This document shows, piece after piece, positions 18,846 to 64,000 of a DNA stretch of 64,000 bases; the first letter of the stretch is position 1; every line of letters begins with the position of its first letter. Source of the stretch: Eledone cirrhosa (taxonomy: Eukaryota); NCBI GenBank assembly GCA_964016885.1, contig OZ024742.1:154070001-154134000 (forward strand). The letters run 5' to 3'. The position numbers and the translations under genes are program-made. The notes under the pieces were generated by a model. It was not told the DNA's origin. It did not search any database and saw only the letters and a list, made by a program, of their open reading frames with translations.

Positions 18846-18898
18846 CTGCTACATATATTTCGGTGACAGCTATTATTGTCTGTGACCTCTTCAGGCAG
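18846..18898 (-). ncRNA. Type I hammerhead ribozyme (solo)
   Basis: Minus strand CTGC-CTGAAGA-GGT(CACAG..CTGTC)ACC-GAAA-TATAT-GTA-GCAG. Confidence 0.7.
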
Positions 18899-20609: not shown

Positions 20610-20907
20610 GTTCAAGAAAACCAATCTTAAAGAGGGAGATGGAGATAGGAGAGGAGAGATATGAGAGGAGAGATTGGTGAATTAGTTAGAAACCAAAGCG
20701 TAAAGGCATGTGCTCAATGTGCAATATGCAGTAGAAAGCAGCTAGGTGGTTGGGTTCATGAAGAAGTTAGGTGCGCAGAGCTGGAAATATTCACTAGTTT
20801 AGCAAAACAAGACCACCAATTTCACAAGGAAGACATTATTAGTGTCAACATATTTTATTTTGATGTAACGAATGTTGAGAATAATAATGATAATATTAAT
20901 AATAATA

Positions 20908-21095
20908 ATTGTTTCGACTTTAGGCACAAGGCCAGCAATTACCCAGTGCATTACTGGTACTTTATTTTATCGACTCCGTAAGGATGAAAGGCAAAGTCAA
21001 CCTCGTAGGGATTTGAACTCAGATCGTAAAGGGACGTAACTATGTTGGAAAGCATGGCGTCCGACCCTCTACCGATACTGCCAATCCACCACCCT
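20908..21095 (-). mobile_element. tRNA-derived SINE inside the PLE left-arm 3' region
   Basis: Full SINE reverse complement within (TAA)n. Confidence 0.9.
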
Positions 21096-21115
21096 TATTA
21101 ATAATAATAATGTCC

Positions 21116-21235
21116 GTTTACAATTGTTTCGCTACTCCATATGATATTTCTGGATCAGATGACTATATATCATAATTGATCTGGTTCAGTTGAAAATAAT
21201 TAACATATTTAAAAGCCAGAGCGGCTCATCGGAAC
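21116..21235 (-). ncRNA. PLE 3' hammerhead variant (CCGAUGA core, long stem II)
   Basis: Mirror of 26867-26986. Confidence 0.55.
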
Positions 21236-24147
21236 TTCAAAGGAATATAAATTAAATTAATGAGAGAATGTTACATAATATAATGTTCCATATATTGTTT
21301 TTTACTATGGTGTCTTGGTTGCATCAGTTGTCAGCCATAATCAAGCAGTTGTAATCTGTCGAGGCTGCATTGTGTGAGATATGGCTATGGGTAACAAGAT
21401 GGTTGCCAAATGGCATATTTACCTTAAAAATTAGAGGGTGGTTTCAGGGGAAGTAACTCCTCGAGAGATTAGAAATTGTGGGTGTTTATAGTTAAGTGCT
21501 AATTTTTAAATTTCTTTAATTGAGAGACAATGTAGGGGAGGTAACTTATAATTATCGAGTTGTTCATAGCAATTTAAGTTATTAGCTACAAGTAAAAATG
21601 GGGCTACATGATTAAGTTGGGTCAAAAATTCTATTGGCGAAGGAATTAGCCCTTCGATGTTGACAGCTAATGGTTACCTCCGTTCTAACGTTAATCGGTA
21701 GAGGTCGAGATAGAGTTATGTAATATGCTTCCGTGATACAGAGATCACAAGATTTCCTTCGTCCATTGAACGGTTGGGCCCTAGCCACGATATCGCATTT
21801 TAGTGAGTGTTGAACGTTGTTTAATTTAAGGTTTTTAATGAGCCTGGCTAGCGATGTCGAACATCTGTTGCTAGGGTCTCGGAAGGAAAAAGAGTGCGCG
21901 TTATAGCGTACCTTAAAAGGGTTAGAGGTAGACCAGATATAAGAGCTGGTATTCGAAGCAGACTTAACTGTGCACCTGTAGACTATGTTGGGTGTCAGGC
22001 AGTGTCCATTTAATGGGCATGCATTGGGGGTAACGGCAGTTGCAGTTGCTTCTGCGGTTAGTGAGAGTAGGGTTATTTAACCTAAGCGGTAGGTCCGTGC
22101 TAGAAGGATTAGATGGAGGAGGTGTGCTACTAGAGTAATTATTGGTGTAGTGGCGTGGTGTATTTGATAGTGGTGGTGGTACCGCGGCGTGGGAGTTATA
22201 CTGTCTTAGCTTACGATGGTTACTGTATGCGATGTGGCTAGCTAGGTTAGGTGTTGTTGAGAATGAGATTTAAATGTTATTTTTATTAAAGAGTTTGTCA
22301 TATCTATGGTTTGGGGGGAGATGTTTAGTTAGGATAGAGAAGAAGCTTTTGGGGATATTAGTAGCTAGATTAGATCAGAATAGGGGGGGGGGGGGTTAAG
22401 TCAGGTGATATTTCTAGGTCTATACCTTCTAGGGGTTCGAGTGGAGTTGGTAGGGGCCTTTCTAGGGTTATTATTACCTGGGGATTTGTTATTTGTCATC
22501 CCATTTCTCATTCCTATTCTAGGGTTGATTTTTTGTTTCCTACTTGGAGTGTGGAGCAAGGCGCTGCCACCATTAAAGTTCCCTGAATAGGTGCTGTTAC
22601 TGCTAAAATTCCGGCGAATCTGGCTATATGCTAAGGTATTTCTAGTTCTAGTGTTAAGTTTATTATGGTGATTTGCTGTTTTATGGCATTTAGCTATGTA
22701 ATAAATTCATTATTCATAACCAGATTCAGAGAGAGCCTTATAATAATATTGTGCGTGGTTTATAAATATCTCCTCATTTGCTGATAGCATTGAGATCCTA
22801 TAGGAGATAGATTTGATTACTGCTCTGATGACTGCCGGTGGGTGGTTAGAGTGTGGGCTAATATAGGTGAGTATTTCACCTGGTTTGTGGTGAGGGTAAT
22901 ATAGATTATTGTTAAGATCCAGGGGGACGTCTAGGATGTTTACTACTTTATGGTTCGGCTCGATGGTGATAGAGAGACGGTTATCTTTAAAGAATCTATG
23001 TAATTGTTTCTTTAGCAAATCGATTCCTCGATTAGTGCAATTGTGGACTGCAAATAGGGCGTCGTCCCTGTAAAGTCCGCCTTACAAAATAGGATTTTGG
23101 CTCTGATGTTACGTAATAGATAATCCCAACTAAATCGGTGACTTGCGCGGAGTCACTTGAGCCCATCGTTTTGTCAAAGTTGTCTGTTCTATCTTTTCTA
23201 GTCCAGAGTGCTCCGTTGAATTCAATGATAGTCTGCCTAGCCAAAGTATGATGTTAATCTCATTATTGGTTATGTCCGAGTTGGTGGGGGCTAGGGCTAA
23301 TGATTTGTTGAGCAGTTCCGGGGTTATTGACGCGTAATAGCCATCATGTCAAATTGGATGAACCTCATAGATTGCTTGGACCTTAGATCGGAGAACCATC
23401 TAATGACCTGGCCGGTGTTGGACCACAACTTGTAGTTGGTATCATCCCGTAGCCCAGGGATTATTCTATCAAGGATGTTCTTAATGATGCGGCCCAGGTG
23501 AGATTTGGTTTGGCTTATGTGTCTAATAGATGGGTTCTCTATAAAGTTTGGCATGTGATCCTTGAGAGAGAACCGTGGGGTTGTTGGTACATAAGGGTGG
23601 GTAAATCTATCCAGATGCAAGTCCTTAACCAAAGCCTGGGCTTTTCGGTTAAGTACGTTTACACTGGAGGGTATATTTTTTTTATAGTTTTTATTGAGTT
23701 CTTTAAGAAGGAAAGAGTTGTAAGTTTCAGGAGTCATGCTGTATAGATTTTTAGTTTTGTCAGACATAAATTGTAAGAGGTGGCTCTCTTTAAATTTGTT
23801 CATAGTTGTTGCTAATTTAGTGAGGAAGTTATTCTTGTGTCTATAATGCTTTTTGAATTTAATGCTCCTGACGAAGTTGAATAGATCTTCATCAAAAGGG
23901 TCCAGCAGGATGTTGTGTCGGGGGTTCTTGCACGTGGTAAATCCATATCTATATGCCGTACTTCCGGCGTCAACAGCAACCGCACGGTCAAGATGGTACG
24001 CTTTCCATCTTATTCTTCGGATGAAGGAGTTGACACTCTGTATTAGGAGTTTGAGGTATGTCTTCCTGTCCGGGATAGGTATGGACTTAAGTGAGATTCT
24101 GAGTTCCTGCTTGCTCAAATATATATGGATTTACCACCTGCAAGTAA

Positions 24148-24178
<31 letters not shown>

Positions 24179-26866
24179 ACAACATCCTGCTGGACCCTTT
24201 TGAGAAATATCTATTCAACTTCGTCAGGAGCATTAAATTCAAAAAGCATTATAGACACAAGAATAACTTCCTCACTAAATTAGCGACAACTATAAAAACA
24301 TTTAAAGATAGCCACCTCTTACATGTTATGTCTGACAAAACTAAAAAATCTATGCAGCATGACTCATGAAACTTACAACTCTTTCCTTCTTAAAGAACTC
24401 AATAAAAACTATAAAAAAAACTATACCCTCCAGTGTAAACGTACTTAACCGAAAAGCCCAGGCTTTGGTTAAGGACTTGCATCTGGATAGATTTACCCAC
24501 CCTTATGTACCAACAACCCCAAGGTTCTCTCTCAAGGAACACATGCCAAACTATATAGAGAACCCCTCTATTAGACTCATAAGCCCAACCACATCTGACC
24601 TGGGCCGCATCATTAAGAACATCCTTGATAGGATAATCCCTGGGCTACGGGATGATACCACCTACAAGTTGTGGTACAACACCGGCAAAGTCATTAGATG
24701 GTTCTCCGATCTAAGATCCAAGTAATCTATGAGGTTCATCTCATTTGACATAGACGGCTATTACGCGTCAATAACCGCTAACTGCTCAACAAAGCATTAG
24801 ACCTAGCCACCACCAACTCCGACATAACCAATAATGAGATTAACATCATACTTATGGCTAGGCAGACTATCATTGAATTCAACGGAGCACTCTGGACTAG
24901 AACAGATAGAACAGACAACTTTGACATTACGATGGGCTCAAGTGACTCCGCGCAAATCACCGATTTAGTTGGGATTTGCCTATTACGTAACATCAGAGCT
25001 GAAATCCACCCTTGCAAGGCGGAATATACAGTGACGACGCCCTATTTGCAGTCCACAATTGCACTAATCGGGGAATCGATTTGCTAAAGAAACATTTACA
25101 TAGATTCTTTAAAAATTACGGTCTCTCTATCACCATCGAGCCGAACCATAACGTGGTAAACTTCCTAGACGTCACCCTGGATCACAAAAATAACCTATAT
25201 TACCCTTACCACAAACCATGTGAAATACTCACATATATTAGCCCACACTCTAACCACCCACCGGCAGTCATCAGAGCAGTAATCAAATCTATTTCCTATA
25301 GGATCTCAATGCTATCAGCAAATGAGGAGATATTTATAAACCACGCACAATATTTGAATAAGGCTTTCTCTGAATATGGTTATGAACAATCACTTTATTA
25401 CATATCTAAATGCCATAACACAGCAATTCACCATAATAAACTTAACACTAGAACTAGAAATACCTTAGCATATAGCCAGATTCGCCGGAATTTTAGCAGT
25501 AACAGCACCTATACAGGGAACTTTAATGGTGGCAGCGGCCTGCTCCCCACTCCAAGTAGCAAACTAAAAATCAACCCTAGAATAGGAATGAGAAATGGGA
25601 TGACAAATAACAAATCCCCAGGTAACAATAACCCTAGCAAGGCCCCTACCAACTCCACTAGAACCCCGAGAAGGAATAGACCTAGAAATATCACCTGGCT
25701 TAACCACCCATTCTCATCTAATCTAGCTACTAATATCCCAAAACGCTTCTTCTCTATCCTAACAAAACATCTCCCCCCCCCAAAAAAGAAACCCCATAGA
25801 TATTACAAACTTTTTAATAAAAATAACATTAACATATCATTCTCCACAACACCTAACCTAGCTAGCCACATCGCATTCAGTAATCATCATAAGCTGAGAC
25901 AGTATAACTGCCACACCGCGGACACCACCACCCCTATCAAATACACCACGCCACTACACCAATAATTACTCTAGTAGCACACCTCCCCCATCTAATCCTT
26001 CTAGCACGGACCTACCGCTTAGGTTAAACAACCTACTCTCACTAACCCCAGAAGCAACTGCAACTGCCGTTACCCTAATGCATGCCCATTAAATGGGCAC
26101 TGCCTGACACCCAACATAGTCTATAGGTGCGCGTTTAAGACTGCTTCGAATACCAGCTCTTATATCTGGTCTACCTCTAACCCTTTTAAGGTACGCTATA
26201 ACGCGAACTCTTTTTCCTTCCGAGACCCTAGCAACAGATGTTCGACATCGTTAGCCAGGCTCATTAAAAACCTTAAATTAAACAACGTTCAACACTCATT
26301 AAAATGGGATATCGTGGCTAGGGCCCAACCGTTCAATGGACGAAGGAAATCTTGTGATCTCTGTATTACGGAATCATATTACATAACTCTATCACGACCT
26401 CTACCGATTAACGTTAGAACGGAGGTAACTATTAGCTTTCAACATCGAAGGGCTAATTCCTTCGCCAATAGAATTGTTGACCCAAATTAGTCATGTAACC
26501 ACATTTTTACATGTAGCTAATAAGTTAAATTGCTATGAACAACTCGATAATTATAAGATACCTCCCCTATATTGTCTCGCAATTAAAACAATTTAAATAT
26601 TAGCACTTAACTATAAACACCCACAATTTCTAATCTCTCGAGGAGTTACTTCCCCTGAAACCACCCTCTAATTTTTAAGGTAAATATGCCCTTTGGCAGC
26701 CATCTTGTTACCAATAGGCAGATCTCACACAATGCGTCCACGACAGATGAATACTGCTTGATTATGGCTGACAACTGATGCAACCAAGACACAATAGTAA
26801 AAACCAATATATGGAACATTATATTATGTAACATTCTCTCATTATTTTAATTTATATTCCTTTGAA

Positions 26867-26986
26867 GTTCCGATGAGCCGCTCCGTCTTTTAAATATGTT
26901 AATTATTTTCAACTGAACCAGATCAATTATGAAATATAGTCATCTGATCCATAAATATTATATGGAGTAGCGAAACAATTGTAAAC
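26867..26986 (+). ncRNA. PLE 3' hammerhead variant (CCGAUGA core, long stem II, palindromic stem III)
   Basis: GTT-CCGATGA-GCCGCTCC...GGAGTAGC-GAAA-CAATTG-TA-AAC. Confidence 0.55.
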
Positions 26987-27012
26987 AGACATTATTATTA
27001 TTATTAATATTA

Positions 27013-27200
27013 AGGGCGGTGGATTGGCAGTATCGGTAGAGGGGCGGACGCCATGCTTTCCAGCATAGTTACGTCCCTTTACGATCTGAGTTCAAATCCC
27101 GCCGAGGTTGACTTTGCCTTTCATCCTTACGGGGTCGATGAAATAAAGTACCAGTAACGCACCGGGTAATTGCTGGCCGTGTGCCTAAAGTAGAAACAAT
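27013..27200 (+). mobile_element. tRNA-derived SINE inside the PLE right-arm 3' region
   Basis: Full SINE at the position homologous to 20908-21095. Confidence 0.9.
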
Positions 27201-27319
27201 TATTATTATTAATATTATTATAATTATTCTCTACATTCCTTACATCAAACTAAAATATGTTGACAATCTTTTAATAATGTCTTCCTTGTGAAATTTGTGG
27301 TCTTGTTTTGCTTAACAAA

Positions 27320-27390
<71 letters not shown>

Positions 27391-33667: not shown

Positions 33668-33715
<48 letters not shown>

Positions 33716-34481
33716 AATGAAGTAATTCCGTCGGAAAAGTACAGGAAAAAAGAGTGTTCTATGTAGGTAACAGAGCTTAATAGTTATGTAATAAACAACA
33801 TAAGGCAATTATTCCGTTTACCAGAGGTTTCTTAAAAGCAAAAGATTTTGCTCTCAATCCTCAGAATGAAAAAATCCTGGTCTCTTTATTGAATTTGGAT
33901 TTTAAAAAACAAAAATGCAATCTATATGAAAGTGAGGCTGGAGAAAGAAGAAGGAAAGAAAAAATAAAATAAAACCACACATGCAAACACACACACAAAC
34001 ACGCACACACACACACAAGCATATACACGCACACACATTTATATATATATAAATACATACACTCATACATATACACACACATATGTGTATATAAATACAC
34101 ACATACACATACATATACACATATATACATACGCACATAAATATCAACACATCCATACATACACATACATATAAACAACAACACACACATATGTACACAC
34201 ATACATACATATAGAAACATAAATATATATATATATTTATAATCTTTGAAGTGTGAGGACAACTGGAAAGCTTCCATTACTCATACTTCTCGCCTTCTTC
34301 ACTACCTCTTCTACGGCCTCGATATGAATACCCCCTCCGCCTCCGTGGTATTTTCTTCGTGGTTATAGGAGGCTTAGCTCTGTTTCTCGACCGTTATATC
34401 GCGTGACTATCTCCCCCTCCGCCTTTTGGGATTCTTTCTCACGTCGTGTAGCCGCGTTCTTGAGACTAGTAAAATGAGGTA

Positions 34482-34569
34482 TCCTCTTGATAAGTCGGCA
34501 GACCTCGCAAGGACTCTATATCTTTGATATATTGTTTTTGTTTATGCCACGAAACTACGTAGTCGAGGA
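34482..34569 (+). ncRNA. Degenerate type I hammerhead
   Basis: TCCTC-TTGATAA-GTCGGCA...TGCCAC-GAAA-CTACGTAG-TC-GAGGA. All stems are intact and the core has two substitutions. Confidence 0.55.
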
Positions 34570-35009
34570 ATTTAGGAACGGTTTAGGTATGATACATTTT
34601 ATTACTAATTATATCTAAATGTTTCTTCTCTCTTCATACTGTATTTTTAACTCTGATACTGGTTCAGTCTGGTTCAAACTGAATTGGTCTGTCCCAGCCA
34701 TTCATTGAGCAACATCGGTGAAGTTGGCACCCTTAACACACAGTTGGGTGGGGATGCATTCATGTATATATGTGTGTGTCCGCATGTATCTGTGTGTTTC
34801 TAAATATATATATATATATATATATATACGGATTAACAAATAATAGTTAAATGCAGTCCACTTAGGTGAAGTCCAGTTATGGTATTCCAGGTAGTGGATG
34901 ATATTAACGCTTGGCTTGGTTTGACTCAACAAGGCATTTTCATAGTGATGCTGCGGGTATGCTGTAATTCCTATGTTGTAAACACTTGGAGTAATAATAA
35001 ATGAGGAAA

Positions 35010-36895
35010 GAAGGTTTACATGGTTTGCTATACAAAAAAGTTTTTAATTAAATAGCTTACATTTGTTTCACTGAGCTGGTATGTCTAGAGATCACTATCC
35101 GCCTAATTTTGCGTCACTCGATCGCCAATACAGAATTATAACCAGTCAGATCTTCGGAGCATGCGAGAATGAAGAAATACACAGGCAAGAAAAGAAAAGA
35201 AAATATGGAGTAGTTATGGCATTCAATTAGAACAATAACAACAACAATTATTACAACAATGCTATCAATAAACTATTTAAGGAGACCCTGACATTACTTA
35301 GGTGGGGGGTATATAATGTATCTAATGTTACGGCGTGAAAATCAGCTGTCATAAGGCAAAAAGTATCGTAGTGTGTATCAATTTTAAATTATAAAGATAA
35401 GCTAGTTTTTACAGTCTTTCTCTTCATCTTCAACAGTATACATGAGTGGGACCACTGTCAAAGCTCAATAGTTGTAGAGTTAATACAGAGGTTAACGAAT
35501 TAATATACGCATATATCTACGCACACACACACACATATATATAAATATATATACACATATATGTGTACATAGACACATACATACACATCAATATACACTC
35601 GTACAAAAATATACATACATGCAAAGAGAAAAGCGTGCTAATTGTAGTTATGGCAAAAAGAAGGTAAAGTAACATTGTAGTAGTGAAATGAGAAAAACTA
35701 GGATCTAGGATCAAATGATTGCAGCAGCCGAGAAGGAGTAAGATTGTTGGTAGATGAGGTATTTACAGACAATTGTGTGGTATAGATTTGTGAAGGAAAT
35801 AGTATACTTAATGAATATATTTCTGTGTGTAGTAGGTATCCTAATTTAAAGCTATGTTATGTTGGTTCGATTCATGGAGGTTTGAATCTTATGAATTTAG
35901 TGGCTATTCTATGTCTGCAGAAGATAGATCTTTCTAACTTATTATTAAGTAGCCTTTTAACATTTCTAAGGATATACAATAGCTCAAGATCACACAGCCC
36001 GCAATAGGACATCCCTGTACTATAGGTTTTAGCAGCCGACAACTTCGACCAGTTGATAGTGTAGCTAGCGTTGCTGTCCTTCAATTCCCATATTTTTCTG
36101 GCGAGGGTGGTGGAACCCATAAGTGCTCGATTTTTCATTGAGTGCCTGTGCACATACCATCTTTTCTTAAAAGAACCCGTGGTGGATCCTATGTAATTCC
36201 AGGTGGAGTTACCCGAGATGACAGTGCACATGTACACCAGGCTCGAATCGAGACATCTGTTCGCCAATGGGCACCTATCTGGGAGGTGACAGTTGCAGTT
36301 TGTGGCGCTATTTTGTGCAGCTTTTACATTCCTATTTAGTACCCTGTTATAAGTGGGTTGTGATATATGCCCCATGGGGTTTTGCTGCTGCGCGTTTGTA
36401 TGCGCTTGTGGTTGTGATGTTGTGATGAGTTTGTGCTTATGTATAGGTGCAATTGATTTACTTGAGATATTTCTGTGGTTGATCTTGCGTATGTGTGATT
36501 CTATGTTAGCTGCTGTTGAGAAAGAGAGTTTTATAGTAGATCTATTGAGTATTTTGTGATATCTATGCGAGATAGGGAAGTGTTTATCTATTAGTTTAAA
36601 GAATGTAGAGGGCAGTCTAGTTTTTATAGAGGAGTTGAATATTGGGTTGAATCATAGGTATTTTCTTTGTCTGTTTCTTCTATTGTTTCTAGGGTTTACG
36701 TTATTAGTGTTTTGGCCGTTTACTCTAGGTGTTACATGTCTAACCCTATGTCTAGTCAAGCTATTCCTATTATTATGTGATCGGTTGGAGTAGAAATTAC
36801 TAGGATTGTTTATGTTGTCCTAATTCACTATATACTGTAGTTTATCTTTATGACCGGCCCTACTTAATGCTGCATTATAATTTCACTACTACAAT
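35010..36895 (-). mobile_element. Nested PLE, 5'-truncated: RT thumb, GIY-YIG ORF and 3' region with HHR (35053-35163)
   Basis: ORF 35872-36375 CNCHLPDRCPLANRC..LVYMC..YIGST..FKKRWY.H..CGLCDLE..CRH. Confidence 0.85.
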
Positions 36896-36899
36896 GTTA

Positions 36900-37023
36900 C
36901 TTTAACTTCTTTTTGCCATAACTACAATTAGCACGCTTTTCTCTTTGCATGTATGTATATTTTTGTACGAGTGTATATTGATGTGTATGTATGTGTCTAT
37001 GTACACATATATGTATATATATT

Positions 37024-37081
<58 letters not shown>

Positions 37082-37612
37082 TGTGTGTGTGTGTGCGTAG
37101 ATATATGCGTATATTAATTCGTTAACCTCTGTATTAACTCTACAACTATTGAGCTTTGACAGTGGTCCCACTCATGTATACTGTTGAAGATGAAGAGAAA
37201 GACTGTAAAAACTAGCTTATCTTTATAATTTAAAATTGATACACACTACGATACTTTTTGCCTTATGACAGCTGATTTTCACGCCGTAACATTAGATACA
37301 TTATATACCCCCCACCTAAGTAATGTCAGGGTCTCCTTAAATAGTTTATTGATAGCATTGTTGTAATAATTGTTGTTGTTATTGTTCTAATTGAATGCCA
37401 TAACTACTCCATATTTTCTTTTCTTTTCTTGCCTGTGTATTTTCTTCATTCTCGCATGCTCCGAAGATCTGACTGGTTATAATTCTGTATTGGCGATCGA
37501 GTGACGCAAAATTAGGCGGATAGCGATCTCTAGACAGACCAGTTCAGTGAAACAAATGTAAGCTATGTGATTAAAAACTTTTTTGTATAGCAAACCATGT
37601 AAACCTTCTTTC
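36900..37612 (+). repeat. Inverted pseudo-LTR arm of the nested PLE with HHR at 37456-37567
   Basis: Reverse complement of about 35010-35690. GCT-CCGAAGA-TCTGACTGGT...ACCAGTTCAGT-GAAA-CAAATG-TA-AGC. Confidence 0.8.
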
Positions 37613-38468
37613 CTGATTTATATATATATATATATATATATGTACAAGCATACACATACACAAACATAGCCATACACACATACATATACATACATACATA
37701 CAAGCAAACAATCATACACATATACACACGTACATACATACACATACATAAATGCACTCCTCTACATATTCACACACGCAAATAAATATAAGAAAAATAT
37801 ATATAAAAAAATTAAAAATATTATAGAGTTGACAGCGATACAAACAGCGGGGAGCTGAACAGACACGCGTGGTAAGTAATACACACAAATGCACGTATAC
37901 ATACGTACGAAATAATGAATACATACACACACTCTCACACATAAATATTCATATACAAATACATAAACACATACGTACACATACACAAATACATGCACAA
38001 ACACGCACACACACACGTAACACTGATACACACACATATATATATTCATATATATATTAATATATATATAAAAATATAAAAATACACACACACATATATA
38101 TGCATACATACACACACACATATACATACATAGCTATACGATTATACACATACAAATACGTACATATCATAAACACGCAGAACCAAATACAAACACACAC
38201 ACACATACGTATATATACATATATATATATATATATACATACATACACACATACATGTGTGTGTGTGTGTAAAACTCAGTCTTAGATAATTCATATGAAC
38301 CTTACATATACATATATATAGTAGTAAAGTAATAAGCAACATAAGGCAATTATTCCATTCACCAGTGGTTTCTTAAGAGCAAAAATAATTAAAAGCAAAA
38401 AAATGTGCCTTCAATCTACAGAATGAAAAAAACCCCTGGTCTATCTACATATACATATATATACACAC

Positions 38469-38539
<71 letters not shown>

Positions 38540-39361
38540 CACATAAATATACATACACATACACATAGGTATGTGAAGGGCAAGGCAAAAAGAATATATG
38601 GGGGGGGGGAAGACATACGAAAAGGTGAAATATAAGGGGAGATAAGGGAGAAAAATATATACAAGAGTACAGAACGTAGATTCAGCAAAATAAAAAAAAC
38701 GTAGCAGTGGTAAAGAGCGGAGAAGGAGTTCAAGGTGGTTGATTTATCATAGGCGTGTCAATCCAGTTACAGATCACATGCGATTTCAGATGAGGACATG
38801 ATCTGAAGATCTCAGTCTTTGAGTTAAGGCAAGCGGAGGTGGCTCTCAAGTCTAGAAAAAATCCTATATTTTTCTGTGGTACACAAAGGACAATTGTTTG
38901 TGTCCCTTTGGTACTCCCTCGAATGGTCTAATATAGACCAATCGATAGAGTACGGGATGTTACTATCCTTGAATTCACACATCTTACTTGCGAGGGCCGT
39001 TGATGTTCGTTTATCGGAGTGCTTAAAAGAAGCGACATGTGAGTAAAATCTGTCCTGGGTCATACCGACATATCGCTCACTCCTGGCTGGCTGGTTGTTG
39101 ATTACCAGTGTTATTTTAGCCTCATAAACAACATATTTGGTGTTACATTTACCCTGCAATGAGCATTCATCCGGCTTCCTGCAACTGCATCCTGGATTTG
39201 TTCTCGTATGGTTTCAACTGGTGATTTTGGACTTCATAGATGGGCAACAAGAGTAGCTGATCTTAACTACGTTCCTATTAAATATATTATAATATCTATG
39301 ATTAGGAGGAAAATGTTTGTCTAAGTGTTCAAGGAATTTCCTTCCTACATTAGAAGCTTTT

Positions 39362-39514
39362 AAATTTTTTTGCTTTTAAGAAACCACTGGTGAATGGAAT
39401 AATTGCCTTATGTTGCTTATTACTTTATTACTATATATATGTATATGTAAGGTTCATATGAATTATCTAAGACTGAGTTTTACACACACACACACATGCA
39501 TGTGTGTATGTATG

Positions 39515-39567
<53 letters not shown>

Positions 39568-40120
39568 GTGTGTTTGTATTTGGTTGTGCGTGTTTATTAT
39601 ATGTACGTATTTGTATGTGTATAATCGTATAGCTATGTATGTGTGTGTGTATGTATGCATATATATGTGTGTGTGTAATTTTATATTTATATATATATAT
39701 ATATGTATATAGATATGTTTGTGTGTATATATGTGTGTGCATAAGGGTTACGTGTGTGTGTGCGTGTTTGTGCATGTATTTGTGTATGTGTATGTATGTG
39801 TTTATGTATTTATATATGAATATTTATGTGTGAGAGTGTGTGTATGTATTCACTATTACGTACGTATGTATACGTGCATTTGTGTGTATTACTTACCACG
39901 CGTGTCTGTTCAGCTACCCGCTGTTTGTATCGCTGTCAACTCTATAATATTTTTATTTTTTTATATATATTTTTTTCTTATAATTATTTGCGTGTGTGAA
40001 TATGTAGAGGAGTGCATTTATGTATGTGTATGTATGTACGTGTGTATATATGTATCAGTGTGTGCATGTATGTATGTATATGTATGTGTGTATGGCTATG
40101 TTTGTGTATGTGTATGCTTG

Positions 40121-40178
<58 letters not shown>

Positions 40179-40374
40179 ATTATGTATATATATATATATT
40201 TATGTTTCTATATGTATGTATGTGTGTATATATGTGTGTGTGGTTGTATATATGTATGTGTACGTATGGATGTGTTGATATTTATGTGCGTATGTATATA
40301 TGTGTATATGTATGTGTATGTGTGTATTTATATACACATATATGTGTGTATATATGTCTGTGTATGTATGAGTG

Positions 40375-40456
<82 letters not shown>

Positions 40457-40714
40457 GTGTGTGTGTCTATGTATGTTTTTGTGTGCGTGTGGGTGTGCGT
40501 GTTTGTGTGTGTGTTTGCATGTGTGGTTTTATTTAATTTTTTCTTTCCTTCTTCTTTCTCCAGCCTCACTTTCATATAGATTGCATATTTGTTTTTTAAA
40601 ATCCAAATTCAATAAAGAGACCAGGATTTTTTCATTCTGAGGATTAAATGCAAAATCTTTTGCTTTTAAGAAACCTCTGGTAAATGGAATAATTGCCTTA
40701 TGTTGTTTATTACA

Positions 40715-40720
<6 letters not shown>
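39362..40720 (+). repeat. Inverted arm: (TG)/(TA)-rich ~1.29 kb segment between two HHR motifs
   Basis: Partial HHR at about 39370-39398 and a complete HHR at 40632-40687. Confidence 0.75.
40632..40687 (+). ncRNA. Type I hammerhead ribozyme
   Basis: TCATT-CTGAGGA-TTAAATGCAAAA-TC-TTTTGCTTTTAA-GAAA-CCTCTGG-TA-AATGG. Confidence 0.75.
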
Positions 40721-40758
<38 letters not shown>

Positions 40759-41042
40759 CAAATAACGAAACGAAATTAAATTTCGTTTCGCTTCTAACTC
40801 ACTTTTGTATGACTGACGCTTAAACAATTAAGTTAAAGTGTACATCTACATATGTATACGGAAGTATTAGTATGCATATAAATACACACATGTATACATA
40901 TGTACATGTACTCAGCTTTTCACTAGACACTTTACAGTGAGTGTCAGCTAGTCTGTATGTAACCACACAGGCGGACCGGGTTTTAGAGTCATACGAGTTT
41001 TCAAGGAAACACATTTCCTCATTCTCCAGAGGGCCAGACAGG

Positions 41043-41087
41043 AATATTGGACTAGTTTCGATGTTATTACATCTCATCAGCAATATT
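41043..41087 (-). ncRNA. Minimal type I hammerhead; 7 minus copies starting at 41043, 41511, 41979, 42447, 42915, 43383 and 43851
   Basis: Reverse complement of AATATTG-CTGATGA-GATGT-AATA-ACATC-GAAA-CTAG-TC-CAATATT. Confidence 0.92.
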
Positions 41088-44000
41088 TACCCATCTTCCG
41101 GCTTCTCTGGAGAATTGTAAAAGCACATATCGTTATATGCTTTTTCTATGAAAATTAGTAGTGGGTAGACTAATTTGCATAGAACGTGAGTCATTGTACG
41201 CACCGGTTCAGCGGAAACGATAAAAACAAATAACGAAACGAAATTAAATTTCGTTTCGCTTCTAACTCACTTTTGTATGACTGACGCTTAAACAATTAAG
41301 TTAAAGTGTACATCTACATATGTATACGGAAGTATTAGTATGCATATAAATACACACATGTATACATATGTACATGTACTCAGCTTTTCACTAGACACTT
41401 TACAGTGAGTGTCAGCTAGTCTGTATGTAACCACACAGGCGGACCGGGTTTTAGAGTCATACGAGTTTTCAAGGAAACACATTTCCTCATTCTCCAGAGG
41501 GCCAGACAGGAATATTGGACTAGTTTCGATGTTATTACATCTCATCAGCAATATTTACCCATCTTCCGGCTTCTCTGGAGAATTGTAAAAGCACATATCG
41601 TTATATGCTTTTTCTATGAAAATTAGTAGTGGGTAGACTAATTTGCATAGAACGTGAGTCATTGTACGCACCGGTTCAGCGGAAACGATAAAAACAAATA
41701 ACGAAACGAAATTAAATTTCGTTTCGCTTCTAACTCACTTTTGTATGACTGACGCTTAAACAATTAAGTTAAAGTGTACATCTACATATGTATACGGAAG
41801 TATTAGTATGCATATAAATACACACATGTATACATATGTACATGTACTCAGCTTTTCACTAGACACTTTACAGTGAGTGTCAGCTAGTCTGTATGTAACC
41901 ACACAGGCGGACCGGGTTTTAGAGTCATACGAGTTTTCAAGGAAACACATTTCCTCATTCTCCAGAGGGCCAGACAGGAATATTGGACTAGTTTCGATGT
42001 TATTACATCTCATCAGCAATATTTACCCATCTTCCGGCTTCTCTGGAGAATTGTAAAAGCACATATCGTTATATGCTTTTTCTATGAAAATTAGTAGTGG
42101 GTAGACTAATTTGCATAGAACGTGAGTCATTGTACGCACCGGTTCAGCGGAAACGATAAAAACAAATAACGAAACGAAATTAAATTTCGTTTCGCTTCTA
42201 ACTCACTTTTGTATGACTGACGCTTAAACAATTAAGTTAAAGTGTACATCTACATATGTATACGGAAGTATTAGTATGCATATAAATACACACATGTATA
42301 CATATGTACATGTACTCAGCTTTTCACTAGACACTTTACAGTGAGTGTCAGCTAGTCTGTATGTAACCACACAGGCGGACCGGGTTTTAGAGTCATACGA
42401 GTTTTCAAGGAAACACATTTCCTCATTCTCCAGAGGGCCAGACAGGAATATTGGACTAGTTTCGATGTTATTACATCTCATCAGCAATATTTACCCATCT
42501 TCCGGCTTCTCTGGAGAATTGTAAAAGCACATATCGTTATATGCTTTTTCTATGAAAATTAGTAGTGGGTAGACTAATTTGCATAGAACGTGAGTCATTG
42601 TACGCACCGGTTCAGCGGAAACGATAAAAACAAATAACGAAACGAAATTAAATTTCGTTTCGCTTCTAACTCACTTTTGTATGACTGACGCTTAAACAAT
42701 TAAGTTAAAGTGTACATCTACATATGTATACGGAAGTATTAGTATGCATATAAATACACACATGTATACATATGTACATGTACTCAGCTTTTCACTAGAC
42801 ACTTTACAGTGAGTGTCAGCTAGTCTGTATGTAACCACACAGGCGGACCGGGTTTTAGAGTCATACGAGTTTTCAAGGAAACACATTTCCTCATTCTCCA
42901 GAGGGCCAGACAGGAATATTGGACTAGTTTCGATGTTATTACATCTCATCAGCAATATTTACCCATCTTCCGGCTTCTCTGGAGAATTGTAAAAGCACAT
43001 ATCGTTATATGCTTTTTCTATGAAAATTAGTAGTGGGTAGACTAATTTGCATAGAACGTGAGTCATTGTACGCACCGGTTCAGCGGAAACGATAAAAACA
43101 AATAACGAAACGAAATTAAATTTCGTTTCGCTTCTAACTCACTTTTGTATGACTGACGCTTAAACAATTAAGTTAAAGTGTACATCTACATATGTATACG
43201 GAAGTATTAGTATGCATATAAATACACACATGTATACATATGTACATGTACTCAGCTTTTCACTAGACACTTTACAGTGAGTGTCAGCTAGTCTGTATGT
43301 AACCACACAGGCGGACCGGGTTTTAGAGTCATACGAGTTTTCAAGGAAACACATTTCCTCATTCTCCAGAGGGCCAGACAGGAATATTGGACTAGTTTCG
43401 ATGTTATTACATCTCATCAGCAATATTTACCCATCTTCCGGCTTCTCTGGAGAATTGTAAAAGCACATATCGTTATATGCTTTTTCTATGAAAATTAGTA
43501 GTGGGTAGACTAATTTGCATAGAACGTGAGTCATTGTACGCACCGGTTCAGCGGAAACGATAAAAACAAATAACGAAACGAAATTAAATTTCGTTTCGCT
43601 TCTAACTCACTTTTGTATGACTGACGCTTAAACAATTAAGTTAAAGTGTACATCTACATATGTATACGGAAGTATTAGTATGCATATAAATACACACATG
43701 TATACATATGTACATGTACTCAGCTTTTCACTAGACACTTTACAGTGAGTGTCAGCTAGTCTGTATGTAACCACACAGGCGGACCGGGTTTTAGAGTCAT
43801 ACGAGTTTTCAAGGAAACACATTTCCTCATTCTCCAGAGGGCCAGACAGGAATATTGGACTAGTTTCGATGTTATTACATCTCATCAGCAATATTTACCC
43901 ATCTTCCGGCTTCTCTGGAGAATTGTAAAATACTTCCGTATACATATGTAGATGTACACTTTAACTTAATTGTTTAAGCGTCAGTCATACAAAAGTGAGT

Positions 44001-44177
44001 TAGAAGCGAAACGAAATTTAATTTCGTTTCGTTATTTGTTTTTATCGTTTCCGCTGAACCGGTGCGTACAATGACTCACGTTCTATGCAAATTAGTCTAC
44101 CCACTACTAATTTTCATAGAAAAAGCATATAACGATATGTGCTTTTACAATTCTCCAGAGAAGCCGGAAGATGGGTA

Positions 44178-44222
44178 AATATTGCTGATGAGATGTAATA
44201 ACATCGAAACTAGTCCAATATT
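44178..44222 (+). ncRNA. Minimal type I hammerhead; 3 plus copies at 44178, 44646 and 45114, predicted cleavage after GUC (44215)
   Basis: 7-bp stem I, perfect CUGAUGA/GAAA core, 5-bp stem II and palindromic ACUAGU stem III. Confidence 0.92.
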
Positions 44223-45375
44223 CCTGTCTGGCCCTCTGGAGAATGAGGAAATGTGTTTCCTTGAAAACTCGTATGACTCTAAAACCCGGTCCGCCTGTGT
44301 GGTTACATACAGACTAGCTGACACTCACTGTAAAGTGTCTAGTGAAAAGCTGAGTACATGTACATATGTATACATGTGTGTATTTATATGCATACTAATA
44401 CTTCCGTATACATATGTAGATGTACACTTTAACTTAATTGTTTAAGCGTCAGTCATACAAAAGTGAGTTAGAAGCGAAACGAAATTTAATTTCGTTTCGT
44501 TATTTGTTTTTATCGTTTCCGCTGAACCGGTGCGTACAATGACTCACGTTCTATGCAAATTAGTCTACCCACTACTAATTTTCATAGAAAAAGCATATAA
44601 CGATATGTGCTTTTACAATTCTCCAGAGAAGCCGGAAGATGGGTAAATATTGCTGATGAGATGTAATAACATCGAAACTAGTCCAATATTCCTGTCTGGC
44701 CCTCTGGAGAATGAGGAAATGTGTTTCCTTGAAAACTCGTATGACTCTAAAACCCGGTCCGCCTGTGTGGTTACATACAGACTAGCTGACACTCACTGTA
44801 AAGTGTCTAGTGAAAAGCTGAGTACATGTACATATGTATACATGTGTGTATTTATATGCATACTAATACTTCCGTATACATATGTAGATGTACACTTTAA
44901 CTTAATTGTTTAAGCGTCAGTCATACAAAAGTGAGTTAGAAGCGAAACGAAATTTAATTTCGTTTCGTTATTTGTTTTTATCGTTTCCGCTGAACCGGTG
45001 CGTACAATGACTCACGTTCTATGCAAATTAGTCTACCCACTACTAATTTTCATAGAAAAAGCATATAACGATATGTGCTTTTACAATTCTCCAGAGAAGC
45101 CGGAAGATGGGTAAATATTGCTGATGAGATGTAATAACATCGAAACTAGTCCAATATTCCTGTCTGGCCCTCTGGAGAATGAGGAAATGTGTTTCCTTGA
45201 AAACTCGTATGACTCTAAAACCCGGTCCGCCTGTGTGGTTACATACAGACTAGCTGACACTCACTGTAAAGTGTCTAGTGAAAAGCTGAGTACATGTACA
45301 TATGTATACATGTGTGTATTTATATGCATACTAATACTTCCGTATACATATGTAGATGTACACTTTAACTTAATT

Positions 45376-45384
45376 ATATATATA

Positions 45385-45460
<76 letters not shown>

Positions 45461-53902: not shown

Positions 53903-53934
<32 letters not shown>

Positions 53935-53942
<8 letters not shown>

Positions 53943-55237
53943 CGTCCTTTCACGCACAAGGCGCCAAGGTGCGCATGTATTGTCCAACCAAGTGCCAGTG
54001 TGGTTCAATGGCGGGTTAATAAATTAACGAGCCAGAACAAATATAAACAAGGTAGCGCTAGTTTGATAGCGCTAGTTTGTGATTTAAATTCAGGAATTTT
54101 ATATTCTTTGAATGAAAAGAACCTTCTGACGAGAATCTCTCTTTGTAACGAGGGCCGTATGGCCTACGTTTTATTTTTGGGATTCGAAACCGATCGGTAA
54201 AGGTAACTATAGTAGGTAAAGTCAATTTTTTAAAATTTATTTTGAAACTTTTTCATTATTTACTAAACCTTGTTTATATTTGTTCTGGCTCGTTAATTTA
54301 TTAACCCGCCATTGAACCACACTGGCACTTGGTTGGACAATACATGCGTACCTTGGCGCCTTGTGCGTGAAAGGACGTATTTCATATTACTACTACCTCC
54401 ACATACGTTGAGAACAAACCGGGTCATTCCGACTGCTGCTGATAACAGCGGTGGCTAGTTCGACCTACCTCCTTTTGCCTCTATCTTTACTACGGCCCTT
54501 GATAAACCTGTTCTACATCATCCACTCTCATCCCAGGAACAGTCTTTGATAGCGCTAGTTTGTGATTTAAATTCAGGAATTTTATATTCTTTGAATGAAA
54601 AGAACCTTCTGACGAGAATCTCTCTTTGTAACGAGGGCCGTATGGCCTACGTTTTATTTTTGGGATTCGAAACCGATCGGTAAAGGTAACTATAGTAGGT
54701 AAAGTCAATTTTTAAAAATTTATTTTGAAACTTTTTCATTATTTACTAAACCTTGTTTATATTTGTTCTGGCTCGTTAATTTATTAACCCGCCATTGAAC
54801 CACACTGGCACTTGGTTGGACAATACATGCGTACCTTGGCGCCTTGTGCGTGAAAGGACGTATTTCATATTACTACTACCTCCACATACGTTGAGAACAA
54901 ACCGGGTCATTCCGACTGCTGCTGATAACAGCGGTGGCTAGTTCGACCTACCTCCTTTTGCCTCTATCTTTACTACGGCCCTTGATAAACCTGTTCTACA
55001 TCATCCACTCTCATCCCAGGAACAGTCTTTGATAGCGCTAGTTTGTGATTTAAATTCAGGAATTTTATATTCTTTGAATGAAAAGAACCTTCTGACGAGA
55101 ATCTCTCTTTGTAACGAGGGCCGTATGGCCTACGTTTTATTTTTGGGATTCGAAACCGATCGGTAAAGGTAACTATAGTAGGTAAAGTCAATTTTTTAAA
55201 ATTTATTTTGAAACTTTTTCATTATTTACTAAACCTT

Positions 55238-55244
<7 letters not shown>
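53935..55244. repeat. 483 bp hammerhead tandem array: ~120 bp inverted arm plus about 2.5 plus-strand units, between (TA)n tracts
   Basis: 483 periodicity. 53935-54053 is the reverse complement of about 54267-54387. Confidence 0.93.
54121..54204 (+). ncRNA. Type I hammerhead with extended stem II; copies at 54604-54687 and 55087-55170
   Basis: ACCTT-CTGACGA-GAATCTC...GGGATTC-GAAA-CCGATCGG-TA-AAGGT. Confidence 0.9.
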
Positions 55245-55300
<56 letters not shown>

Positions 55301-62682: not shown

Positions 62683-62903
<221 letters not shown>

Positions 62904-62907
62904 TATA

Positions 62908-63950
62908 TAAATATGTATGTACACGTACATACATATATGTATACAGACGTACAGTAGTATGTATATATATATACATACATGCACACATATATATATGTAC
63001 GTATGGATTCACCAAACATTTATTAAAATGCTCGGTGTGTTTGTAAACAAACATCCCGTATTAAGCTGTAGTGTCTAGTAACCATCGTTGCTCGTTTGTT
63101 CAACACTGACAAAGGAACACTGTACTACTTTCAAGCTTATTAGCTATCGTCAGCAACGTACACCTTCCTGTGAGGTTGTTGAACGTATATACTTACCTTA
63201 TGCATATTAACGGCTGAGTAGCCCAATTTGCTGACGATATCTAATAAGCTTGAAACTAGTACAGCGTTCCTTTGCCAGTGTTGAACAAACGAGCAACGAT
63301 GGTTGCTAGACACTACGGCTTAATACGGGATGTTTGTTTACAAACACACCGAGCATTATAATAAATGTTCGTTGAATCCATACGTACATATATATATATG
63401 TGTGCATGTATGTATATATATACATACTACTGTACGTCTGTATACATATATGTATGTACGAGTACATACTTATATTTAAGTAACAGCCGTACTAAGAGGT
63501 GGAAATGAAATTTCGTTTCATTTTTTCAGTTCATGGTTTTCGGTGCACCCGGCCGATTAACCCACTCGATATGCAAACTGGCCTACCTAGCCGTTAATAT
63601 GCATAAGGTAAGTATATACGTTCAACAATCTAGCATGAAGTTATACGTTGCTGACGATAGCTAATAAGCTTGAAACTAGTACAGTGTTCCTTTGTGAGTG
63701 TTGAACAAACGAGTAACGATGGTTGCTAGACACTACGGCTTAATACGGGATGTTTGTTTACAAATACACCGAGCATTATAATAAATGTTCGGTGAATCCA
63801 TACGTACATATATATATGTGTGCATGTATGTATATATATATACATACTACTGTACGTCTGTATACATATATGTATGTACGTGTACATACTTGTATTTAAG
63901 TAACAGCCGTACTAAGAGTGGGAAATGAAATTTCGTTTCATTTTGTCCGT
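62908..63950. repeat. 420 bp hammerhead tandem array: ~320 bp inverted arm plus about 1.7 plus-strand units, between (TA)n tracts
   Basis: CTGACGATA at 63231 and 63651. 62908-63227 is inverted. Units are slightly diverged. Confidence 0.9.
63646..63686 (+). ncRNA. Minimal type I hammerhead; copies at 63228-63266 plus and 63118-63158 minus
   Basis: CGTTG-CTGACGA-T-AGCT-AATA-AGCT-T-GAAA-CTAG-TA-CAGTG. Confidence 0.85.
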
Positions 63951-63951
63951 T

Positions 63952-63983
<32 letters not shown>

Positions 63984-64000
63984 CACACATATATATATAT

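Follow-up and report, generated by a model that had tools for sequence, protein, structure and literature searches.

Animal retrozymes without long terminal repeats (non-LTR retrozymes) have been described, in the available parts of the sources (a scope that applies to every source cited here), as tandem, non-coding units that carry a type I hammerhead ribozyme, with a GC content under 50%, a highly self-paired monomer, dispersed multimers and a co-occurrence with Penelope-like elements (PLEs) (PMC7229834; 10.64898/2026.07.22.740005). The same features are found in a two-armed array of 468-bp units, and in its family, within a 64,000-nucleotide stretch of Eledone cirrhosa DNA (assembly GCA_964016885.1, contig OZ024742.1, positions 154,070,001 to 154,134,000; this whole stretch is hereafter called the window). 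The unit is longer than the 170–400 nt given for retrozymes and lies within the 51–972 bp of 10.64898/2026.07.22.740005. As far as the available descriptions go, published retrozymes form head-to-tail tandems only, without head-to-head arms or a tail rule, whereas the array has both; the accessible text of 10.64898/2026.07.22.740005 gave no match for "tail", "head" or "orientation". Retrozyme circles have been demonstrated in coral, mussel and axolotl (PMC7229834), whereas the circle of the array is predicted from DNA alone. With regard to mobilization, the reverse transcriptase (RT) of PLEs is proposed in PMC7229834, while 10.64898/2026.07.22.740005 links retrozymes to PLE terminal repeats and favours local amplification; in both, the copying of a circle by a PLE RT is a hypothesis from co-occurrence and phylogeny. 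Retrozyme repeats as described in PMC7761336 show no motif that points to their partner, unlike the array, whose ends carry a PLE signature.

PLEs with an endonuclease (Hydra clade; PMC8557442) likewise have a (TA)n target, an inverted 5'-truncated copy, a tail at one end only (also PMC3846280) and a hammerhead in the terminal repeat, and the route to such inverted, tailed insertions is described as unresolved (PMC8557442). Similarly, in vitro work on the PAc Poseidon element (PMC11167929) places two internal RT start sites at the bounds of the tail and finds both strands of an AT-rich target cleaved and extended; differing sites on the two strands of one insertion are unreported in the available parts of that work, and no circular template was used there. 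Compared with the Hydra-clade PLEs, the array has no open reading frame (ORF), both of its arms are multimers of the terminal unit, and the tail of its family is 69–74 nt long against 30–40 nt. In the twin priming of L1, both target strands prime on one RNA and leave a head-to-head junction with microhomology; the array differs in that its second primer would use a fixed site, ~70 nt away from that of the first, and in that its arms overlap in sequence over several units.

The array is a fresh retrozyme insertion, likely made by a Penelope-like RT/endonuclease that cut both strands of a TA microsatellite and extended each of them on one 468-nt RNA, probably a circle. The class is already known; what is new is genomic evidence on mechanism that ties retrozymes to the PLE insertion signature, and among the titles and abstract beginnings consulted in the literature none dealt with retrozyme arrays in head-to-head orientation, with a strict rule of one tail per insertion or with a test based on private alleles. 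The non-LTR retrozyme class, the PLE machinery and the tail/no-tail meaning of the inversion and the ends also go beyond an earlier note on this DNA.

Ends of the arms and alleles shared between them

The earlier note had reported about ten 468-bp units without any difference in either orientation, with arm ends apart from the cleavage site of the ribozyme, and this two-armed array is confirmed from the assembly: the arms comprise 6.79 and 3.09 units and, compared with a single 468-bp concatemer, show 0 mismatches (100% identity). The ribozyme sense points outward on both arms, giving a head-to-head arrangement; the inversion is asymmetric, and the flanks of the two sides differ. In unit numbering, where q1 is window position 44216, the first base 3' of the predicted cleavage site, the outer ends (q298 and q224) each abut (TA)n, and neither they nor the inner ends (q396 and q182) fall at the cleavage site. 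A hairpin of 12 bp (q260–q284) lies inside the tail of arm 1.

The end rule was derived from 86 loci, namely the array locus, 34 best matches, 22 loci of the array's own subfamily, 23 of a sister subfamily and 6 of one young clade; the 22 and 23 were drawn from position-ordered lists for contig 1, which for the sister subfamily is a selection, and L057, L085 and L103 were dropped as duplicates. Two arms are present at 65 loci and one arm at 21 (15 tail, 6 no-tail). With canonical outer ends defined as q294–303 (tail) or q222–231 (no-tail), both ends are canonical in 56 of the 65 two-armed loci, and all 56, including four whose short second arms were assigned by motif, pair one tail end with one no-tail end and never like with like; under an independent even-odds choice the probability of this outcome is ~1e-17. 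Seven further loci yielded five more such pairs, one non-canonical case and one single arm. Either arm may be the longer (the tail arm in 32/56 loci), and a TA-rich flank adjoins at least one side in 75/86. At 8 of 16 loci picked for non-TA flanks, junction-adjacent duplications of 12–17 bp were found, above the 4 bp expected at least of retrozyme target-site duplications (TSDs); at the array itself, the 13-nt AT stretch beyond arm 2 is compatible with a TSD of ~13 bp but no proof of it. Among 52 measured inner junctions, 29 overlap by 1–9 nt, 6 are blunt, 13 contain 1–26 extra bases and 4 are unreliable. The array ends follow the PLE tail/no-tail signature, and the one-tail rule, combined with an inverted 5'-truncated arm, amounts to a PLE-type insertion layout, which the family repeats together with the AT-rich or (TA)n target; it is highly probable that PLE-type retrotransposition made the array. 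At two loci (L144:2372-2493 and L184:4359-4586), the tail arm halts on, or immediately beside, the position where no-tail ends start (q234 and q221, respectively), as if one polymerase met the other.

The alleles carried by the units bear on the number of templates. An A after q29 is present in 35 other best-match loci and missing in 10/10 array units on both arms, at a site outside any homopolymer. In genome-wide counts, which are exact-word matches in the 3.0-Gb assembly, the deleted 26-mer has 10 matches (7 minus, 3 plus), all within the array, while a 27-mer of the array's subfamily with the intact allele has 816 and a 30-mer of the sister subfamily, ~88% identical, has 7,041. Similarly, a variant at L096 occupies 5/5 covering units on both arms, and its sole other match, considered as a donor, was rejected since it sits on a different haplotype. 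Terminal pieces of the two arms of one locus differ less than shuffled pairs, with 1.73 vs 3.29 differences (30 pairs) and, in a second subfamily set, 3.55 vs 10.38 (11 pairs); 0/5,000 shuffles of the arm pairing were as low as observed. Moreover, a non-majority allele is present in every covering unit of both arms at 27/51 informative two-armed loci. A single template molecule very likely stands behind both arms of the array.

The note's further proposal, that an active family inserted here very recently, finds support in the identical units, the locus-private allele, the 816 subfamily matches and long arrays with zero or near-zero differences (8, 8, 18 and 24 full units), all of which point to a young, dispersed and apparently active family; a similarity search with the unit listed at least 310 matches on many contigs, from 37/548 candidates scored. 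Public-run contigs over the deletion site all carry the family allele, and the array junction is in no displayed record, most pieces being undisplayed; as contigs also drop rare variants, they give no evidence of polymorphism. In run X2, from organism B, a single end-overlapping contig of 499 nt holds a 469-nt unit at a depth of 2.4, without sister-subfamily contigs, and two other runs of that study contain next to none of the unit's words; this contig is most likely a stray molecule, with transfer between species as the alternative.

The ribozyme and the retrozyme class

Hammerhead cores number ten, one in each of the 10 units (7 minus, 3 plus). Across related units the CUGANGA/GAAA core is invariant and the cleavage triplet is GUC, GUU or GUA, always NUH; with the G10.1–C11.1 pair and three helices, this is the canonical type I form. 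An Rfam scan at gathering level gave no match, and Hammerhead_HH9 gave a full-length alignment (E 3.6e-6; 31.8 bits, vs a gathering score of 52); miRNA-like Rfam matches, far below gathering, were taken as AT-hairpin matches. The linear unit folds with z = -10 and paired monomer ends, and the circular fold reaches -155 kcal/mol vs -95 for 30 shuffles. In a covariation set of six hand-picked related units (the array unit, two sister units and three of a distant family), the paired cells make up 92.9%, and both partners change in 6/14 hammerhead pairs, compared with no more than 1 pair in a slid-partner control; because these sequences are related, a shuffle control on them is not a probability. 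To judge from the Rfam alignment, the fold z and the two-sided pair changes, the motif is more than chance.

A perfect minimal hammerhead with a palindromic stem III, bracketed by TTCTCCAGAG/CTCTGGAGAA, had been noted in each unit. The bracketing pair holds up and forms the outer portion of an extended stem I, which is predicted to bring the ends of the cleaved monomer together. The short palindromic helix III is also present, and invariant across related units, but for that very reason the term minimal does not apply, as the minimal hammerhead of PLEs defined in PMC4209133 has no helix III. In a monomer, stem III has 2 bp and needs a 2-nt loop, which the folding program disallows, while two copies form a duplex of 6 bp (-4.8 kcal/mol). 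Since motifs with short palindromic stems III cleave as dimers (PMC4209133), dimeric cleavage of array transcripts is plausible by analogy. Separately, window 44234-44275 (q19–q60) resembles a hammerhead-like motif of another PLE family (L162:1643-1672; 83% over 28 nt, E 0.004), possibly as a decayed second ribozyme, or by chance.

By its features, the array is a non-coding hammerhead repeat of the animal non-LTR retrozyme class, with a hammerhead in at least two consecutive units, a GC content of 0.37, dispersed copies and a self-paired monomer. It consists of units only, without an LTR layout (the primer-binding site and polypurine tract were not searched for separately). In the doubled unit, ATG frames reach at most 85 aa, and the longest runs across the position at which units of the family carry an additional base; no autonomous-PLE ORF (RT plus GIY-YIG) was found in the array. 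Table 1 collects the coordinates.

Table 1. Features at and beside the array, in window positions (q, unit position)
Feature	Position	Strand	Remarks
Arm 1	40752..43930	minus	3,179 bp, 6.79 units of 468 bp; ribozyme sense on minus; 3' end q298 (tail end, outer), 5' end truncated at q396 (inner)
Arm 2	43929..45375	plus	1,447 bp, 3.09 units of 468 bp; ribozyme sense on plus; 3' end q224 (no-tail, outer), 5' end q182 (inner)
Head-to-head junction	43929..43930		2-nt overlap (AA) common to both arms
Left (TA)n target run	40719..40751		also the run at the no-tail end of the older Hydra-type PLE copy
Alternating AT, 13 nt	45376..45388		directly 3' of arm 2
PLE-type tail	40752..40825	minus	q225–q298, 74 nt; outer end of arm 1 only
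One monomer, cleavage site to cleavage site	44216..44683	plus	predicted circular RNA
Type I hammerhead	44178..44222	plus	stems I and II of 7 and 5 bp, stem III palindromic; cleavage predicted between 44215 and 44216
Further hammerheads, arm 2	44646-44690, 45114-45158	plus	
Hammerhead, arm 1	41043..41087	minus	six more at 468-bp steps up to 43851-43895
Extended stem I	44151..44243	plus	closed by a 10-bp inverted pair
Locus-private 1-nt deletion (A after q29)	44244..44245	plus	in all 10 units covering the site
Older Hydra-type PLE, 3' end	40179..40721	plus	inverted partner arm 33780-34243 with ~65-nt tail

Template, mechanism and rival explanations

By analogy with other retrozymes, a tandem transcript would cleave itself, probably as dimeric hammerheads, and the monomer would be ligated to a circle. 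The TSDs and flanks of sister loci suggest that AT-rich DNA would then be cut on both strands ~12–14 nt apart. On the observed end pattern, always one of each kind, one 3'-OH would prime at RNA position q~298 and the other at q~224–229; both cDNAs would roll on the same molecule, whose allele the arms are observed to share, for 6.8 and 3.1 turns, and their ends would anneal at the 2-nt microhomology seen at the junction and be filled in. More tentatively, and with rather less confidence than in the parts above, one PLE enzyme dimer may have copied one circular ribozyme RNA twice simultaneously, each nick priming at its own fixed site and both polymerases rolling with strand displacement.

Cleavage-site crossings are free of indels in 384/386 cases, and the resolved inner (5') ends within 5 nt of the site number 2/138 vs 3.2 expected, which is no enrichment. 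The scar-free crossings imply a template that was continuous across the cleavage site; this continuity rules out a simple linear monomer and leaves jumping improbable, but a circle and an uncleaved multimer fit equally. The circle is favoured because no donor for the deletion exists in the assembly and because of the long near-uniform arrays, and a circular monomer was probably the template at the array locus. Rolling-circle copying through about 7 and 3 turns, as proposed in the earlier note, is the most likely reading and is strengthened by the private deletion in 10 units and by the clean crossings; its circle is a deduction, and a linear multimer could also have served. A dimeric circle, considered for alternating units at L049, L087 and L138, was rejected, as later block duplication fits their patterns better.

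Several observations weigh against the copying of one circle from two fixed priming sites. Nine of the 65 two-armed loci have one non-canonical end (one of these at an assembly gap), and in the in vitro PLE work the start site did not differ between the strands (PMC11167929). Variants expected to be private at L130 and L081 are clade markers, with 7 loci each; the arms of L146 are discordant (11 differences), L154 switches haplotype, and these two and L190 look like mixed templates; at L096 and L187, a variant is shared by the two terminal units only. Older loci (L049, L087, L138, and arrays of 53 and 32 units) contain block duplications of mutated units, so that the unit number does not always equal the number of turns. 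A donor array with the deletion could lie on an unassembled haplotype or in a parent. In a partner search that covered three Hydra-type PLE families, one terminal-repeat comparison covering 4/7 loci, the unit showed no significant homology to their terminal repeats beyond AT-rich stretches and the 28-nt match given above. Finally, the RNA circle and its cleavage are deduced, and the structure of the array is known from the assembly alone, where perfect identity may arise from consensus building; an inversion or copy number produced as an assembly or fold-back artefact is nevertheless barely conceivable, as the inversion is asymmetric with differing flanks, the deletion lies outside a homopolymer, and the same end rule recurs at 56 loci, several with TSDs.

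The chief rival, though unlikely, retains the two-nick priming by a PLE and replaces the circle by a linear multimer that stayed uncleaved and came from a donor array with at least seven units, all with the deletion. In vitro, uncleaved RNA predominated as substrate (PMC11167929), other haplotypes do have long homogeneous donors (the L130 clade, 7 loci, up to 25 units), the terminal-only variants (L096, L187) and haplotype switches (L146, L154, L190) suit mixed multimers, and scar-free crossings suit a multimer as well as a circle; however, the deletion is in no other unit of the assembly, a donor fixed for the new variant would itself require the amplification of a single unit, and partial sharing between arms is rare relative to full fixation. 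It is improbable that a short PLE-type insertion of one or two units per arm, from a template with the deletion, grew later by unequal exchange in the manner of a satellite: block duplications are visible at older loci and the route is proposed in 10.64898/2026.07.22.740005, but 0 substitutions in 4,624 bp leave little time for such growth, and several other arrays with zero or near-zero differences are long on both arms. Still less probable is one cDNA that folded back and copied itself, with the second end cut by the endonuclease (self-priming and endonuclease resolution; PMC3846280, PMC8557442), which predicts identical arms and shared alleles without two priming events and agrees with the common palindromic start of both arms at several loci (e.g., L037, L055, L093, L101 and L132). 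Yet at L092, L102, L144, L156 and L184 each arm holds sequence that the other lacks, and neither can have been copied from its partner; the tail arm may be the longer or the shorter, and a multi-unit first strand would still be required. Hardly any weight falls to an RT that jumped end to end between cleaved linear monomers, as in the template jumping of R2. Stem I is modelled to hold the monomer ends together, and the cleavage site lies within the intervals to which the haplotype switches of L146 and L154 are mapped, but indels mark only 2/386 crossings, truncations do not accumulate at the site, and the allele common to all 10 units occurs in none of 816 other matches.

Neighbouring elements and significance

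The older Hydra-type PLE at 33700-40721, one arm of which bears a tail of ~65 nt, encloses a younger PLE (34997-37621) and has at its no-tail end the TA run that the array occupies. A Hydra-type PLE at 20787-27326 is decayed; it is arranged head-to-head (92.9%), and only one of its arms has a tail (~200 nt). In a second hammerhead repeat, at 53933-55245 (483 bp x 2.5), stem II is long and stem III palindromic, and its inverted 121-bp arm ends ~110 nt past the direct-arm end, which is the tail/no-tail layout. A third hammerhead family, likewise head-to-head (62829-63985; L067:500-1100; L104:1200-1900), is a distant homologue of the unit with a T-T mismatch at the base of stem II and a GUA site, and isolated hammerhead-like cores occur at 18894 (-), 48742 (+) and 60453 (-). 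The earlier claim that everything around the array is decayed thus fails in two places: the 483-bp repeat (54.06–55.25 kb) is 99.7% self-identical, and the PLE fragment at 35.9–36.3 kb has 99% protein identity to many copies, some in 808-aa frames. A Pfam search did not recognise six PLE fragments of the window, whose clade assignment rests on RWK, DKT and CxCX5C motifs.

Three Hydra-type families have open frames of up to 727, 808 and ~715 aa and tails of ~200, 176 and 67 nt, respectively. Autonomous elements with the RWK, DKT and CxCX5C motifs and 808-aa frames show the head-to-head pairing of tail and no-tail ends in 4/8 loci, with one end only seen at the other four and a family tail of ~176 nt. 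Intact 808-aa ORFs in many 99%-identical copies (L157:2844-5267, L158-L163) suggest that this family is active and a candidate enzyme source, and the family with the ~67-nt tail is a candidate partner by tail length only. On balance, a Hydra-clade enzyme would be responsible.

If one enzyme dimer did copy one circle from both nicks at once, the PLE tail and the inverted 5' copy would be the trace left by priming that necessarily involves two strands and two sites, and retrozyme arrays would be long from the outset instead of growing in the manner of satellites. Insertions of this family number in the thousands, are short, young and marked by alleles, and obey a strict one-tail rule; with a candidate template of 468 nt and intact candidate enzymes in the same genome, PLE insertion and retrozyme mobilization become directly testable in vitro and in pedigrees.

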